In this document: piece by piece, positions 53,094-59,600 of the stretch | Position numbering within the stretch: the first letter of the stretch is position 1 | How the letters are laid out: each line of letters starts with the position of its first letter | Assembly (NCBI RefSeq): GCF_000027125.1 | Contig: NC_017626.1 | DNA from: Escherichia coli 042 | GTDB lineage: Bacteria > Pseudomonadota > Gammaproteobacteria > Enterobacterales > Enterobacteriaceae | DNA length: 64,000 nt | Direction: 5' to 3' (one strand) | The notes under the pieces: model-generated | The model's database searches: none | What the model saw: the letters and a program-made list of their open reading frames with translations, nothing else | Told to the model about the DNA's origin: nothing | Program-made: the position numbers and the translations under genes

Positions 53094-53378
53094 ATGCCTT
53101 TAGCAGCCAAACTCACCGACAAAGGCACCCAGCACGACGGTTATTACGAGACCGTCATCACCGCCGGGTCATCCACCGTCTTTATCGATGGTCTTCCCGC
53201 AGCCCGTCAGGGAGATCCGCTGACGCCGCATGCTAAACCGAAGCATCCCCCTCATCCCCGTAAAATCGCCAGAGGTTCTTCAACCGTCTTTATTGACGGC
53301 CTGCCCGCCGCCAGAAGCGGTGATGCTGTTGACTGCGGCGGCGTGGTTATTGGTGGCGGTACGGTAAATATAGGCTGA
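53094..53378 (+). CDS. PAAR-repeat protein (T6SS spike tip)
   Basis: 94-aa ORF with two LPAAR motifs (VFIDGLPAARQGD, VFIDGLPAARSGD); SD aggagg; 18 bp upstream of vgrG. Confidence 0.8.
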   Translation: MPLAAKLTDKGTQHDGYYETVITAGSSTVFIDGLPAARQGDPLTPHAKPKHPPHPRKIARGSSTVFIDGLPAARSGDAVDCGGVVIGGGTVNIG

Positions 53379-53396
53379 TATGTCTGAGAGGTATTT

Positions 53397-55802
53397 ATGT
53401 CCTTAAAAGGTCTTCGCTTTACGCTGGAGGTTGACGGCCAGGAGCCGGACACCTTTGCAGTGGTGAATTTCAGGTTAATCCAGAACCAGTCATATCCGTT
53501 TGTGATGAGTGTGGATGTTGCCAGCGACTCTTTTATGCAGACGGCGGAGATGCTGCTGGAGAAGAAGGCGACACTGACCATCTGGCAGGGCGCAGTGGCG
53601 CAGCGTTATGTCACCGGCGTGGTGGCGGGTTTTGGCATGCAGGAGAATAACGGCTGGCAGATGCGTTATCACCTGCGTATTGAGCCGCCGTTATGGCGGT
53701 GCGGGCTGCGGCAGAACTTTCGTATCTTCCAGCAGCAGGATATCCGGACGATATCGGCCACGTTACTGAACGAGAACGGCGTCACGGAGTGGACGCCGCT
53801 GTTTTATGAGGACCATCCGGCGCGGGAGTTCTGTGTCCAGTACGGGGAGTCGGACCTGGCGTTTCTGTCCCGGCTGTGGGCGGAGGAGGGTCTTTTCTTC
53901 TTTGAGCGGTTTGCGGCGGACAGTCCGGAGCAGAAGCTGACGCTGTGCGACGATGTGGCGGGGCTGTCACAGGCGGGGGAGTTTCCGTTTAACCCGGACA
54001 CATCGGCAGGTGCGGAGACGGAGTGTGTCAGTATGTTCCGTTATGAGGCGCATGTCCGCCCGTCATCGGTGCAGAGCCAGGATTACACCTTTAAGGTGCC
54101 GGACTGGCCGGGGATGTATGAGCAGCAGGGTGAGAACCTGAACGGACAGCTGGAGCAGTATGAGATATTTGATTATCCGGGAAGGTACAAGGATGAACAG
54201 CACGGCAAGGATTTCACGCTGTACCAGATGGAGAGCCTGCGCAGTGATGCGGAAAAGGCCACAGGGCAGAGTAATTCGCCGAAGCTGTGGCCGGGAACGC
54301 GGTTTATGCTGACGGGGCATCCGCAGAAGATGCTGAACCGTGAATGGCAGGTGGTACAGAGCATACTGTCAGGAAACCAGCCGCAGGCGCTGCACGGCAG
54401 CCAGGGAAAGGGAACCACGCTGGGCAATCAGTTAGAGGTGATACCGGCGGACCGGACGTGGCGTCCACGGCTGCAAAACAAACCGAAGGTGGACGGGCCA
54501 CAGAGCGCCATCGTCACCGGTCCTGCGGGAGAGGAAATCTTCTGCGATGAACATGGACGGGTACGGGTGAAGTTCCACTGGGACCGTTATCACGGGATGA
54601 CGGAGGCGAGTTCATGCTGGGTGCGGGTATCGCAGGCGTGGGCGGGGCCGGGGTTCGGTAACCTGGCGATACCACGGGTGGGTCAGGAGGTGATAGTGGA
54701 CTTCCTGAACGGCGACCCGGACCAGCCGATAATCATGGGGCGGACGTACCATGAGGACAACCGTTCGCCGGGCGACCTGCCGGGAACGAAGACGCAGATG
54801 ACCATCCGGTCAAAAACCTATAAAGGAAGCGGATTTAACGAGCTGCGGTTTGAAGACGCCACCAGTAATGAGCAGGTGTATATCCATGCCCAGAAGAACA
54901 TGGATACGGAGGTGCTCAACGACCGGACAACGGATGTGAAACATGACCATACGGAAACCATCGGGAACGACCAGAAGATAACGGTGGTGAAGGGGCAGAC
55001 GGTTCAGGTCGGGACCAGAAAAGAAGGGGGCCACGACCAGAGTATCACGGTGGCGAACGACCGGTGCATCACGGTACGTAATGACCAGACGCTGCAGGTG
55101 ACGAATGACCGGACGGTGAGCGTGAGTAATGATGACGGCCTGTACGTCAGAAATGACCGTAAAGTGACGGTGGAAGGGAAGCAGGAGCATAAGACGACGG
55201 GGAACCATATCAGTCTGGTGGAGGGAAAGCACAGCCTGGTGGTGAAGGGGGACCTGGCGAGGAAGGTGAGTGGCGCGCTGGGGATAAAGGTGGACGGGGA
55301 TATCGTGCTGGAGAGCAGCAGCCGGATAAGCCTGAAGGTGAGTGGCTCGTTTGTGGTCATCCATTCAGGGGGCGTGGACATCGTCGGGCCGAAAATCAAT
55401 CTCAATAGCGGCGGTAGTCCGGGGACGCCGGTGCCGGCGCTGCAACCGGCGGTGCTGAAGACACTGGGGGATGAGAAGAGTGGTGATGGCAGTGATTCCG
55501 GAGAAGAAAATGAAGACTCTGGAGGGAACTGCGTGACCGGAAGTGGTGGTGATGATCGAGGTGACGATGAGGATGAACCTGAAAAATATACTCTCCAGTT
55601 CCATTTTACAGACGATGACGGGATACCGTATTCAGAAACCCGCTACATTGCCTTCTTTGAGGATGGCACGCAGACCCGCGGAGAAACGGATGAAGAGGGG
55701 TATACAGAGCGTTTTTTTGTATCTAGCAAACATGAAATTAAAGTGAAGTTGTTATTTGCGAATGATGATTTTCTCTCAATGGAAGGACACTATGGACGAT
55801 AA
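53397..55802 (+). CDS. vgrG: Type VI secretion spike protein VgrG with C-terminal extension
   Basis: 801-aa ORF with gp27/gp5-like N-terminal two thirds, beta-helix repeat region (TVSVSNDDGLYVRNDRKVTV...), then an acidic Gly/Ser/Asp linker and a ~70-aa C-terminal domain. Confidence 0.9.
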   Translation: MSLKGLRFTLEVDGQEPDTFAVVNFRLIQNQSYPFVMSVDVASDSFMQTAEMLLEKKATLTIWQGAVAQRYVTGVVAGFGMQENNGWQMRYHLRIEPPLWRCGLRQNFRIFQQQDIRTISATLLNENGVTEWTPLFYEDHPAREFCVQYGESDLAFLSRLWAEEGLFFFERFAADSPEQKLTLCDDVAGLSQAGEFPFNPDTSAGAETECVSMFRYEAHVRPSSVQSQDYTFKVPDWPGMYEQQGENLNGQLEQYEIFDYPGRYKDEQHGKDFTLYQMESLRSDAEKATGQSNSPKLWPGTRFMLTGHPQKMLNREWQVVQSILSGNQPQALHGSQGKGTTLGNQLEVIPADRTWRPRLQNKPKVDGPQSAIVTGPAGEEIFCDEHGRVRVKFHWDRYHGMTEASSCWVRVSQAWAGPGFGNLAIPRVGQEVIVDFLNGDPDQPIIMGRTYHEDNRSPGDLPGTKTQMTIRSKTYKGSGFNELRFEDATSNEQVYIHAQKNMDTEVLNDRTTDVKHDHTETIGNDQKITVVKGQTVQVGTRKEGGHDQSITVANDRCITVRNDQTLQVTNDRTVSVSNDDGLYVRNDRKVTVEGKQEHKTTGNHISLVEGKHSLVVKGDLARKVSGALGIKVDGDIVLESSSRISLKVSGSFVVIHSGGVDIVGPKINLNSGGSPGTPVPALQPAVLKTLGDEKSGDGSDSGEENEDSGGNCVTGSGGDDRGDDEDEPEKYTLQFHFTDDDGIPYSETRYIAFFEDGTQTRGETDEEGYTERFFVSSKHEIKVKLLFANDDFLSMEGHYGR

Positions 55803-56583
55803 TAATCAAACTTCTGGACAACCAAAGCCAGAGCCAGAAGAATGTGTGAAAGAGCAAAAAATAACTGATCATTTTAAAATAATGATTGATAAGGCTCGTA
55901 AGGCACAAAAGTTGGTTTTGATAAAAAGAGCAGATGATCTTTTGAGATGGGGAGCACAGGAGGAATATGATTTCAGTAAGATCTTTGGTGTTAAAGGAAA
56001 TAAGGAGGTTAATATAAGAAAATATGGACATAATACAGGTAGGCGCATGAATGCTAGATTTCTTATGATGGATGGTGTGAGAAGATTAATGATTATAGCT
56101 AATGATTTAACAATGAGCAGTTTTATAAATTATACAGGTTGTAATGAATTTGCAGCATTCGTCAGCCCAAGTAAGGATATGCCCTATATAATTAACATAG
56201 GCGCAAAATTTGAGTATAGAGATGGCAAAAAAAATCCAGTAACGGGAAAGGATTCTCATGTTGCTACTTTATGTCATGAAATGTCTCATATTCAGTGGTA
56301 TTATGGGGATAATAAAAAAGGTGGTATGTGGTCACAGGATTATACAACTACTGATAAATATTCAACGTGCAAAGAGGATGAAGTTTCATATGACGAACAT
56401 ATCCGTATTGCAACTAAACTGATCTCTAAACAAAAAGATCAAATATTCGAGAATGCATATAACATAGAAAGATATTTTGAAATAAGATTAATTGAAAGTG
56501 AGATAGACTCGATTAATGATGAAATATTAAGCAATTCAGTTAAGAAAAAAATAGCGGAATTAGAAAAAGCACTTCTCCATTAA
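55792..56583 (+). CDS. Putative T6SS cargo effector with HExxH zinc-metallopeptidase motif
   Basis: 263 codons from ATG 55792, which overlaps the last 11 bp of vgrG; motif TLCHEMSHIQWYYG (HEXXH); no signal peptide or TM segment. Confidence 0.6.
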   Translation: MDDNNQTSGQPKPEPEECVKEQKITDHFKIMIDKARKAQKLVLIKRADDLLRWGAQEEYDFSKIFGVKGNKEVNIRKYGHNTGRRMNARFLMMDGVRRLMIIANDLTMSSFINYTGCNEFAAFVSPSKDMPYIINIGAKFEYRDGKKNPVTGKDSHVATLCHEMSHIQWYYGDNKKGGMWSQDYTTTDKYSTCKEDEVSYDEHIRIATKLISKQKDQIFENAYNIERYFEIRLIESEIDSINDEILSNSVKKKIAELEKALLH

Positions 56584-56606
56584 CTAATAAGTCGAGAAAT
56601 ATATTA

Positions 56607-57428
56607 ATGCTGCAAGCTATAAAAAAAATCATAATAATGACAATCGTAAATATTATATTTTTCTATTCCTTTCAATCGACTGCGGATGAAATGGTTTTAA
56701 TAAAAAAATACGGGTTTGGGCTTGAGAGAGATATCAAAGGAAGGCCATTAATTTATCCTATCGAAAATTATGATGAGTGTAAGAAAAAATGCAATCATAT
56801 GAATTATATAGCGGATGTCAATGCTCAATTAGCTATGAGTAAAAAAAATAACAGGATTTTTGCTAACATAACCTTTACTAACAATAGCTCTACCACGTAT
56901 TTTTTTTCTAAATATTACCTACCTATGAAAGTAAAAGATGGAAAAGGAGATGAATATGATGCGATATGCAAAAAACCATTCAGAATCAACTCTGGGAATA
57001 TCACGTTGGACTACTTAGGTGGTTCATGTCCTTTTGAAATTAATACGAATCCTGAACGGTGGAATACTATTAAACCAGGTCGTAGTTTTTTGTTGAGTAT
57101 AACCTTAAATGATATGTATGCCTTTATACCAGGAGATAATTATTATTTTATAAAATCATCTGGCTATAAATTTGTTAATGACAAGTGGTTTACACTCAAA
57201 TCAATCAATAATATTTTTCTTTATTTTTTAAATTTAAAAATTAATTGTGCTGATGATTTTTTTGATATTAATAATTTTACTACATGTGATAATTTGTTAT
57301 TAGATGAAAAAAAACACTTTTTTATTAATCAGTTATGGGCAATTGAGGATGAAAAAAATTCTATTTACGTCACCCCTGATGAAATTTCTATAAGTATAGA
57401 CGGCGATAACTTAAAGTTGCCATATTAG
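56607..57428 (+). CDS. Putative cognate immunity protein (secreted/periplasmic)
   Basis: 273-aa ORF 23 bp after the effector; N-terminal signal peptide (IIIMTIVNIIFFYSFQSTA/DE); AT-rich; no recognisable domain. Confidence 0.5.
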   Translation: MLQAIKKIIIMTIVNIIFFYSFQSTADEMVLIKKYGFGLERDIKGRPLIYPIENYDECKKKCNHMNYIADVNAQLAMSKKNNRIFANITFTNNSSTTYFFSKYYLPMKVKDGKGDEYDAICKKPFRINSGNITLDYLGGSCPFEINTNPERWNTIKPGRSFLLSITLNDMYAFIPGDNYYFIKSSGYKFVNDKWFTLKSINNIFLYFLNLKINCADDFFDINNFTTCDNLLLDEKKHFFINQLWAIEDEKNSIYVTPDEISISIDGDNLKLPY

Positions 57429-57447
57429 GAATCTGTGAAAGAACAAG

Positions 57448-57936
57448 GTGCGCCGCTTTTTTGTACTAAATAATTCGCATTTTAGTCACGGCAGAGAAGA
57501 AATCCATCTTCATATTGTTTGCGATGTCCCTGATGAACTTATTGATTTCACGTTTGAATGGAAAGGTCAGAAGAAATTATGCGTGGCAGTCTCCTTTTGG
57601 TCAATAATAGCAGAACAAAAGAAAGAGCCAGAAATGACGGTCAGATATTATATCAGTTCTGCTGATTTAACCGCAAAAAAGTTCGCCACAGCGATACGAA
57701 ATCACTGGCACGTGGAGAATAAGCTGCACTGGCGTCTGGACGTGGTAATGAACGAAGACGACTGCAAAATAAGAAGAGGAAACGCCGCAGAATTATTTTC
57801 AGGGATACGGCACATCGCTATTAATATTTTAACGAATGATAAGGTATTCAAGGCAGGGTTAAGACGCAAGATGCGAAAAGCAGCTATGGACAGAGACTAC
57901 CTCGCGTCAGTCCTTGCGGGGAGCGGGCTTTCGTAA
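57448..57936 (+). pseudogene. H-repeat-associated (ISAs1-family transposase) C-terminal remnant
   Basis: 162-aa ORF whose C-terminal ~110 aa ([63 protein letters not shown]...) matches the C-terminus of H-rpt / ISAs1 transposases; N-terminal catalytic part absent. Confidence 0.75.
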
Positions 57937-58044: not shown

Positions 58045-58605
58045 ATGAAAAAAAGCAAAAAAATTAAAACAATGAACCATCAAAATAATAGCGGGATACA
58101 AAATCAACCAGACTATCACATCGAAATAGAAAGAAAAAATATGGTAAGATTGCTTGATGAACGTATTGATAAAGTTTACGGTTCATTGCTAGGACCAATG
58201 AAAAAGAAAAATATAGATAAAATACGTCATTTTACACTTGATGTAATGGTGTTTATTCTTGACACGAACCCTCGTGTTTGTAATAAATTATCCAGGGAAA
58301 TAATATCTTTAGCGCAAAATACCTTCATTGAAAAAAACGTTAATTTTTCAACTTTTAATAATGAACAGCATAGAATAAGGGAGTATATGAATGAAGGTGG
58401 TGGAATACGATGGTTTACATGGGATAACCCCGAGATATCTTTTGTTCGTGCATCTTTTGGCCTTTTTGTCAAAATGGAAACAAAAGGTGATCATGAACAT
58501 ACACTAAGTGACACATTTCTTCAGATTGTTGAGTGTGTTAATTTAAATATAGGACTTATTGCAAAAGATGAACTGGTAAAAATCATCAATAAACACTTTA
58601 TGTAA
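58045..58605 (+). CDS. Hypothetical protein (AT-rich orphan)
   Basis: 186-aa ORF in a low-GC block downstream of the H-rpt remnant; no recognisable motif. Confidence 0.4.
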   Translation: MKKSKKIKTMNHQNNSGIQNQPDYHIEIERKNMVRLLDERIDKVYGSLLGPMKKKNIDKIRHFTLDVMVFILDTNPRVCNKLSREIISLAQNTFIEKNVNFSTFNNEQHRIREYMNEGGGIRWFTWDNPEISFVRASFGLFVKMETKGDHEHTLSDTFLQIVECVNLNIGLIAKDELVKIINKHFM

Positions 58606-58964: not shown

Positions 58965-59600
58965 ATGAATAAAGGTAATAGATTACAACAGTTAGAAGAT
59001 GCGTGTCGTGATATTATTAAAATTAACATGTGGTATGAACTCCCCGATTATGTATTTTTTTCAATATCTGACACCATCGATGGGACGAGTGATGAATTCG
59101 CAATAAATGTGTATAAAAATATCGATAAAAGTCTTCTTGAAATATTATTGCATCCATCTGTTTTACTGTCAGTTGTTGAGTCCTTACAAAGTAATACTAT
59201 AGCTGAGTATATCGTGAAATTGTCTGAAATAGAGATGAATTATGACGACTTGCTAATATCGGATGTTAAATCATGTCTTTTTATCAACTATGGATTCAAT
59301 AACAGTGAATCGGTTGCGCTATTTAATAAGATTTACCGCGAATTAAAAGATATTGTAAAATCATCAAGAGTACATATAGATCATGAGAAAGATATTTTTG
59401 ATGGCCTTAATCAAATCTTGGCTTTTTCCGATAATAATAAACATGAGTATTTTTTATATATAAAGGCATATTGGCTCAGTTTATACTTTTGTGAAATTTC
59501 ACAGAACGTGAGAGAAAGAGATAAGTTGTCATTTTATTATAATGAATTTTCTGTCCGATTTCCTAATGTTGTCCTATATCCGTCATGCTACAAATTGTAA
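58965..59600 (+). CDS. Hypothetical protein (AT-rich orphan)
   Basis: 211-aa ORF in a low-GC block; no signal peptide; no recognisable motif. Confidence 0.4.
   Translation: MNKGNRLQQLEDACRDIIKINMWYELPDYVFFSISDTIDGTSDEFAINVYKNIDKSLLEILLHPSVLLSVVESLQSNTIAEYIVKLSEIEMNYDDLLISDVKSCLFINYGFNNSESVALFNKIYRELKDIVKSSRVHIDHEKDIFDGLNQILAFSDNNKHEYFLYIKAYWLSLYFCEISQNVRERDKLSFYYNEFSVRFPNVVLYPSCYKL

Follow-up and report, generated by a model that had tools for sequence, protein, structure and literature searches.

How is a toxin loaded onto a type VI secretion spike when the island encoding both carries no adaptor gene? The question is raised by an orphan type VI secretion island at positions 53094-57936, between yncG and yddH, in a 64,000-nt stretch of the Escherichia coli 042 chromosome (contig NC_017626.1). 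The whole stretch is called the window below, and its positions are numbered from its first letter. The island contains genes for a PAAR protein, a VgrG spike protein, an effector and a presumed immunity protein, followed by an insertion sequence fragment and two unassigned open reading frames (ORFs). As a preliminary description of the sequence had claimed, no separate adaptor gene was found in the island by RefSeq annotation or NCBIfam, whether of the DUF4123, DUF1795 or DUF2169 families or of the Tla3 type. The answer is likely to lie in the last ~130 residues of VgrG, which would act as an internal adaptor made of a tether and a transthyretin-like (TTR) domain, and would directly load the adjacent M35-like toxin. 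The preliminary description had already read this region as a flexible linker with a small TTR-like domain that docks the downstream effector. That reading is supported here, and by homology docking is the most likely role of the domain.

Build of the VgrG C-terminus

Pfam families cover only residues 34-621 of VgrG (Phage_GPD, Phage_base_V and Gp5_trimer_C) and NCBIfam only residues 8-519, so the last ~130 residues were left without annotation. A Pro-rich segment, a 35-residue acidic linker, a 57-residue beta domain and a 14-residue tail follow one another there. Model confidence is given below as the predicted local distance difference test score (pLDDT).

53397..55802, + strand: vgrG/tssI, 801 residues (TIGR03361, E 5e-180; Pfam Phage_GPD, Phage_base_V and Gp5_trimer_C; VgrG1 matches in PDB, E 1e-87)
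55404..55481, + strand: end of the beta-helix and Pro/Ala-rich exit segment, residues 670-695, NSGGSPGTPVPALQPAVLKTLGDEKS (read from the sequence)
55482..55586, + strand: acidic low-complexity linker, residues 696-730, GDGSDSGEENEDSGGNCVTGSGGDDRGDDEDEPEK (read as a flexible tether from its composition)
55587..55757, + strand: TTR-like beta-sandwich domain, residues 731-787, 57 residues, presumed cargo-docking module
55758..55799, + strand: variable C-terminal tail, residues 788-801, ANDDFLSMEGHYGR, predicted to be disordered (pLDDT at most 50 both alone and fused; several tail types in homologues)

An identical gene is annotated as TssI/VgrG in RefSeq (WP_000053613.1), and both peptides quoted in the preliminary description were found in the 801-residue product. 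A C-terminal extension had been proposed from position 55400. The extension is real, but this position still lies inside the last turn of the beta-helix (…GPKINLNSGG), whose NSGG motif aligns with the end of the needle of Pseudomonas aeruginosa VgrG1. The linker was indeed rich in Gly, Ser, Asp and Glu, which make up 77% of residues 696-730 against 31% of the whole VgrG, and its net charge is -12. Its length and sequence differ among homologues, and VgrGs of the DUF2345 type with the same domain have no linker at all; it is interpreted as a flexible, disordered tether. The beta domain begins with YTLQFHF at residue 731 (nt 55587). The end segment of ~70 residues had been expected to be beta-rich, which holds, since five strands were predicted, but its conserved part is a domain of 57 residues and the remaining 14 form a variable tail of low confidence.

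Identification of the TTR-like domain

A HMMER search of 1.8 billion representative proteins returned 66 relatives at E<=1e-3, nearly all of them VgrG C-termini or fragments of these. AlphaFold2, run with an alignment of 57 sequences, predicted five beta strands with a pLDDT of about 90 over residues 1-57 of the domain and of 50 or below over the last ~12 residues. With these relatives and this confident fold the C-terminal segment is a real domain and not a chance one, and it is predicted to be ordered.

The family profile matched residues 781-830 of PDB entry 6sjl (VgrG1 of enteroaggregative E. coli, EAEC; E 5.6e-8) and residues 22-66 of 6h56 (near the start of a VgrG2b C-terminal construct; E 5.4e-8), which are exactly the two solved VgrG TTR domains. 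These matches place the domain in the VgrG 'TTR-like' family. The profile was needed for this assignment, as a single-sequence PDB search with the last 130 residues of VgrG gave chance matches only. The domain shares with that family its place at the extreme C-terminus of VgrG, on a linker after the needle, as well as its homology to the solved TTRs and the same small beta-sandwich fold. It does not have the full fold of transthyretin or 5-hydroxyisourate hydrolase, an eight-stranded prealbumin sandwich of ~110 residues. Nor is the protein an evolved VgrG with a fused toxin, since its C-terminal domain is the 57-residue sandwich and the toxin is a separate ORF.

Homologues from different genera keep 40-60% identity in the domain and have intact reading frames, and its sequence is present in 659 of 5426 complete E. 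coli genomes (about 12%). A Pfam search with the domain gave nothing, even with the alignment, and no enzyme family matched. Neither a Pfam family nor a RefSeq feature describes it, and an unannotated but common element is now labelled. Some VgrGs, the metagenomic P0023, P0024, P0025, P0028 and P0057, end in two tandem TTR copies, and weaker TTR matches occur as 4-5 tandem repeats in the non-VgrG proteins P0033, P0075 and P0076.

Association of the domain with M35-like effectors

A profile search of genome contigs with a 12-sequence alignment gave 5 loci, so VgrG/effector pairs were compiled from E. coli genome matches and the contigs encoding them. This yielded 14 pairs. For six of them the starting point was the effector, whose exact protein was looked up, and the others came from E. 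coli and species genomes. An M35-like effector lies directly behind a VgrG ending in this domain in all 14 loci. The 14 VgrGs form two clades that are 24% identical overall, one with a gp5-C needle and the acidic linker and the other with a DUF2345 needle and no linker, and the N-half of the TTR is ~60% identical between them. On these alignments, high identity between the two effector-carrying clades is confined to the TTR, which is their common denominator.

One homologous pair has been studied experimentally. The locus of E. coli PAR (NZ_CP012379, 20771-29430) belongs to the cluster of type VI secretion system 2 (T6SS-2) at metV and holds two tandem VgrG-M35-immunity modules. Its second vgrG is a pseudogene annotated as 'frameshifted; internal stop', and the two pieces of 560 and 250 residues are the 'VgrG-PAR' and 'DUF2345-PAR' of PMC10673891. 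The 250-residue 'DUF2345-PAR' ends in the TTR domain described here (residues 182-237). It co-immunoprecipitated M35-PAR in a heterologous host in which only the two proteins were expressed, while the N-terminal VgrG piece did not, and the toxin-immunity pair was also demonstrated experimentally (PMC10673891). This result supports, by experiment, docking through the C-terminal region in a pair homologous to that of the window, at a contact site not narrowed to the TTR.

Cassette junction inside the domain

55710..55802, + strand: last ~30 vgrG codons (TTR strands 4-5 and tail), part of the exchangeable effector cassette (identity break, GC content, covariation)

Compared with the Nissle vgrG, nucleotide identity is ~95% through vgrG to about 55700, and beyond that point it falls to ~50% over the last 30 vgrG codons, the effector gene and the presumed immunity gene. 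The Nissle-type allele has the VgrG tail NDYYIFEVNCNEHQ and a different effector, a 200-residue M35 type, and ~128 genomes match only as far as the junction, like the Nissle allele. The junction near 55700 lies inside the TTR domain, after a conserved TDxxGYTE motif. The guanine plus cytosine (GC) content is 0.584 in the body of vgrG, 0.496 in the N-half of the TTR, 0.323 in its C-half with the tail and 0.324 in the effector gene. Two Salmonella fragments have the same break, with TTR residues 1-38 identical and with different C-halves and tails. Over 12 pairs, the last ~30 residues of VgrG covaried with effector identity (Mantel rho 0.60, p 4e-4), and the N-half of the TTR showed no clear covariation with it (Mantel rho 0.20, p 0.08).

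The last ~30 vgrG codons, encoding TTR strands 4-5 and the tail, thus belong to the exchangeable effector-immunity cassette. Because they travel with it, whatever in the domain is specific for the cargo is best sought in them. We regard it as possible, though on balance doubtful, that the TDxxGxTE motif marks the boundary at which cassettes are exchanged, much as VENN does in CdiA and PxxxxDPxGL in Rhs. The N-half would then be the homology arm, and the last two strands and the tail would be swapped together with the effector-immunity genes and would encode which M35 type is carried. If so, a single crossover within a folded domain could give one VgrG scaffold a new weapon. For spike engineering, the prediction is that exchange of the last ~30 VgrG residues would change which M35-type toxin is delivered.

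Probable translational coupling of carrier and cargo

55778..55802, + strand: translational-coupling region within the vgrG tail codons, with a Shine-Dalgarno (SD)-like GGAAGGA, the effector ATG (55792) and the vgrG stop (55800-55802)

The gene downstream of vgrG (55792..56583) overlaps it by 11 nt. A purine-rich SD-like motif stands 5-9 nt before the effector ATG in 12 of 12 loci, in the codons for the conserved E-G or G-G of the tail. In 10 of these loci there is overlap between the vgrG stop and the opening codons of the effector; the remaining two have the stop 2-8 nt upstream of the effector ATG. The end of the tail (…EGHYGR, …GGVxE) is conserved because its codons hold the SD, the ATG of the effector and the stop of vgrG. 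The conserved tail end was also considered as a docking motif at the protein level, which was largely rejected on account of these codons and of its low confidence in both models, the isolated and the fused one. The 11-nt overlap, with the ribosome binding site placed in the codons of the VgrG tail, should couple the synthesis of carrier and cargo.

Proposed docking mechanism

In the proposed mechanism, the Pro-rich exit segment and the 35-residue acidic disordered tether would carry the 57-residue TTR beta-sandwich, and in the VgrG trimer every protomer would bind, through its TTR, a single molecule of the M35 aspzincin-like toxin. On the model of Tle1 and Tae17, the contact would probably be an edge-to-edge pairing of beta strands between the TTR and the conserved N-terminal strand of the effector (residues ~18-23, ECVKEQ). 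If the TTR docks the toxin directly in this way, no separate adaptor is needed, and the toxin could ride the spike into the prey periplasm. The gene overlap would keep the two syntheses together, and the C-half with the tail, moving with the cassette, would set the cargo specificity.

TTR and effector were also modelled as a single chain, fused through a (GGGGS)6 linker, by AlphaFold2 with a partly paired alignment. Both domains folded well, with pLDDT below 50 for the tail, the artificial linker and effector residues 1-17. Effector residues 18-23 formed a strand in this model, and strand 1 of the TTR was a continuous ladder where the isolated model had a patchy one. These strands are compatible with strand complementation, and are suggestive only.

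The M35-like effectors share an N-terminal layout of ~15 polar residues, a C-[VI]-x4-[IV]-T-[ND]-x-F-K motif and a long helix (window 55792-55870 and alignment), and the TTR may take its partner strand from this shared segment. A polar start, judged by eye over the first 70 residues, is also present in the unrelated cargo proteins encoded after distant TTR-VgrGs (loci L003, L015, L016 and L017). In two Trabulsiella/Buttiauxella loci (L005, 5183-5306; L006, 1977-2052) the called M35 ORF begins 75-123 nt after vgrG and is without the conserved N-terminal strand region; either its start is mis-called or its N-terminus has decayed.

Weighing of direct docking against the alternatives

Several observations weigh against direct docking by the TTR. 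The fused-chain model, read without coordinates or predicted aligned error, yielded no readable TTR-effector interface. The confidence of the TTR was no higher in the fusion (65-78 in the first strand, against ~90 alone), and the predicted template modelling score of 0.69 for the fused chain is explicable by the effector domain alone. The covariation between the C-half and the effector could stem from physical linkage in cassette exchange, with no functional coupling, and the conservation of the final 5-6 tail residues is accounted for by the SD and the start codon of the effector. More remote relatives within the domain family are followed by different cargo (Ntox44 and proteins without a known family). 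For the family overall, a TTR subfamily specific for M35 cargo was rejected on this ground; the domain in itself has no M35 specificity and is a general platform. Finally, the PAR fragment that was co-immunoprecipitated includes the beta-helix, and its authors credit DUF2345 and not the TTR, which was not delimited there (PMC10673891).

The alternative that survives best is that the TTR domain is accessory or dispensable, which is improbable in our view. The assignment of the PAR interaction to DUF2345 would fit it, as would the model without a confident interface and the fact that EAEC Tle1 also touches the gp5-like domain of VgrG1 (PMC10715212). However, the binding PAR fragment also contains the TTR, and deletion of the TTR abolishes partner binding in VgrG1 (PMC10715212) and in VgrG2b (PMC6560169). 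One effector family is moreover carried by two needle types that are only 24% identical, and what both have in common at high identity, throughout the 14 loci, is the TTR.

Less probable still is that the TTR recruits something else, either an adaptor encoded elsewhere or a ligand of the prey envelope, and that the toxin reaches the spike by other means. There is a precedent in the TTR of VgrG2b, which binds the adaptor Tla3 (PMC6560169). However, no gene of an adaptor family was found in or beside the island, the tight gene overlap and the strict co-occurrence with one effector family favour a direct pair, and two expressed proteins were enough for the co-immunoprecipitation in the PAR experiment.

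The least likely possibility is that the arrangement merely remains from a past gene fission or fusion and plays no part in docking, a TTR-peptidase VgrG of an ancestor having been split and the covariation being hitch-hiking in cassette recombination. VgrG2b does have its TTR fused directly to a metallopeptidase, and P. aeruginosa BL21 has a natural split behind the TTR (PMC6899460). The GC and identity break shows that the last 93 nt of vgrG move with the cassette, and the SD and ATG constrain the end of the tail. However, the profile of the M35 effector family misses the VgrG2b peptidase (6h56), so that the effector is not a simple split of VgrG2b, a split toxin would still need a means to stay on the spike, and the domain is conserved across genera on intact frames.

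Direct loading of the M35-like toxin by the TTR would otherwise be a routine case of a known loading mechanism. The points added here are the cassette junction inside the domain, the building of the vgrG tail into the initiation signals of the effector, and the identity of the 'DUF2345' adaptor as a TTR-bearing VgrG fragment.

The effector and its presumed immunity protein

55792..56583, + strand: cargo effector, M35 aspzincin-like zinc metallopeptidase, 263 residues (profile, fold match, RefSeq 'peptidase M35')
56607..57428, + strand: presumed periplasmic immunity protein, 273 residues, with signal-like N-terminus (position right after the effector; hydrophobic N-terminus)

The effector has the motif HEMSH at residues 162-166, and H162, E163, H166 and D183 are invariant in 23 homologues. 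Its family profile matched AsaP1 (2x3a, E 2e-7) and GfMEP (1g12, E 9e-5), and a Foldseek search with its model gave 1ge6 (E 5e-5) and also deuterolysin (1eb6), while the Pfam match of the single sequence was weak (E 0.005). With the HExxH, the Asp ligand and the fold all found, the effector is, as judged from sequence and model, an M35 aspzincin-like peptidase. A split-off peptidase of the VgrG2b type was considered for the cargo and rejected, as the profile matched M35 aspzincins and not 6h56.

For the 273-residue protein no Pfam or NCBIfam family was found. An equivalent gene stands downstream of the effector in the loci listed or read. From its position and its signal-like N-terminus it is presumed to be the periplasmic immunity protein of the effector. 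An M35-type peptidase of an E. coli mastitis isolate is toxic only if sent to the periplasm (PMC7904677), which is consistent with a presumed immunity protein that bears a signal.

Other features of the island and related loci

53094..53378, + strand: PAAR tip protein, 94 residues, first gene of the island (NCBIfam NF033420 T6SS_PAAR_dom, E 1.4e-46; RefSeq annotation of the identical locus)
57448..57936, + strand: ISAs1-family transposase fragment, cassette boundary (RefSeq annotation of the identical locus)

Of 5426 complete E. coli genomes, 472 contain 80% or more of the 2.2-kb region that runs from the 3' end of vgrG to the ISAs1 fragment. Two AT-rich ORFs (58045-58605 and 58965-59600; 186 and 211 residues) are located in the interval from that fragment to yddH. 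No NCBIfam match was found for either; they may be orphan immunity genes or remnants of cassettes.

At the yncG-yddH site of O145:H28 RM13514 (L009) and ESDR8 (L010) the island is degraded: vgrG is cut to ~490 codons, the M35 gene is in pieces, and there is an insertion that encodes a cysteine-protease effector with its immunity protein (Cpe1/Cpi1). In the main T6SS-1 cluster of E. coli 33E (L008, 2347-9205), a vgrG 3' fragment, DUF4123, DUF3304 and Tle1 come, in this order, after a TTR-VgrG/M35/immunity module, an arrangement that looks like serial displacement of effector modules.

Comparison with known systems

The TTR of VgrG1 from EAEC (E. coli 17-2; PDB 6SJL/6SK0; Flaugnatti 2016, 2020), which loads Tle1, is a homologue of the window domain. 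It sits on a flexible linker, which is unseen in the cryo-electron microscopy map, and the N-terminal strand of Tle1 completes its fold (PMC10715212, PMC10433429). Identity is only ~26-28%. The window protein has gp5-C repeats in its needle and the 35-residue acidic linker, whereas VgrG1 has DUF2345. The cargo differs as well: Tle1 is a lipase, and the protein that the window TTR would bind is an M35-like peptidase.

VgrG2b of P. aeruginosa (PA0262; PDB 6H56) has the order VgrG-DUF2345-TTR-metallopeptidase, and thus resembles the window in having a homologous TTR with a periplasmic zinc metallopeptidase toxin after it. Unlike the window toxin, which is encoded by a separate, translationally coupled gene, its peptidase is covalently fused and of another family, and its TTR serves a second effector by binding the adaptor Tla3.

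In Acinetobacter baumannii, the TTR of VgrG17 pairs edge-to-edge with a strand of Tae17, and VgrG17 can do without its last 16 residues (PMC11796386). The likeness, drawn from the published description of VgrG17, is that a TTR/Ig-like region at the VgrG C-terminus binds the cargo's N-terminal region; the dispensable end of VgrG17 parallels the disordered tail in the window. Tae17, unlike the window effector, is a peptidoglycan hydrolase that docks through its own Ig-like and LysM domains.

The PAR module is similar in cargo. M35-PAR belongs to the same effector family, is 32% identical to the window effector and shares its HExxH and NAYNIERYFE motifs, and the same TTR domain ends the C-terminal piece of the PAR VgrG. 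This VgrG differs from that of the window in belonging to T6SS-2 and to the DUF2345-type clade (24% identical), in having no acidic linker and in being split by an internal stop. The published PAR claim can thereby be refined, as the M35-binding 'DUF2345' protein is a VgrG C-terminal fragment that ends in a TTR.

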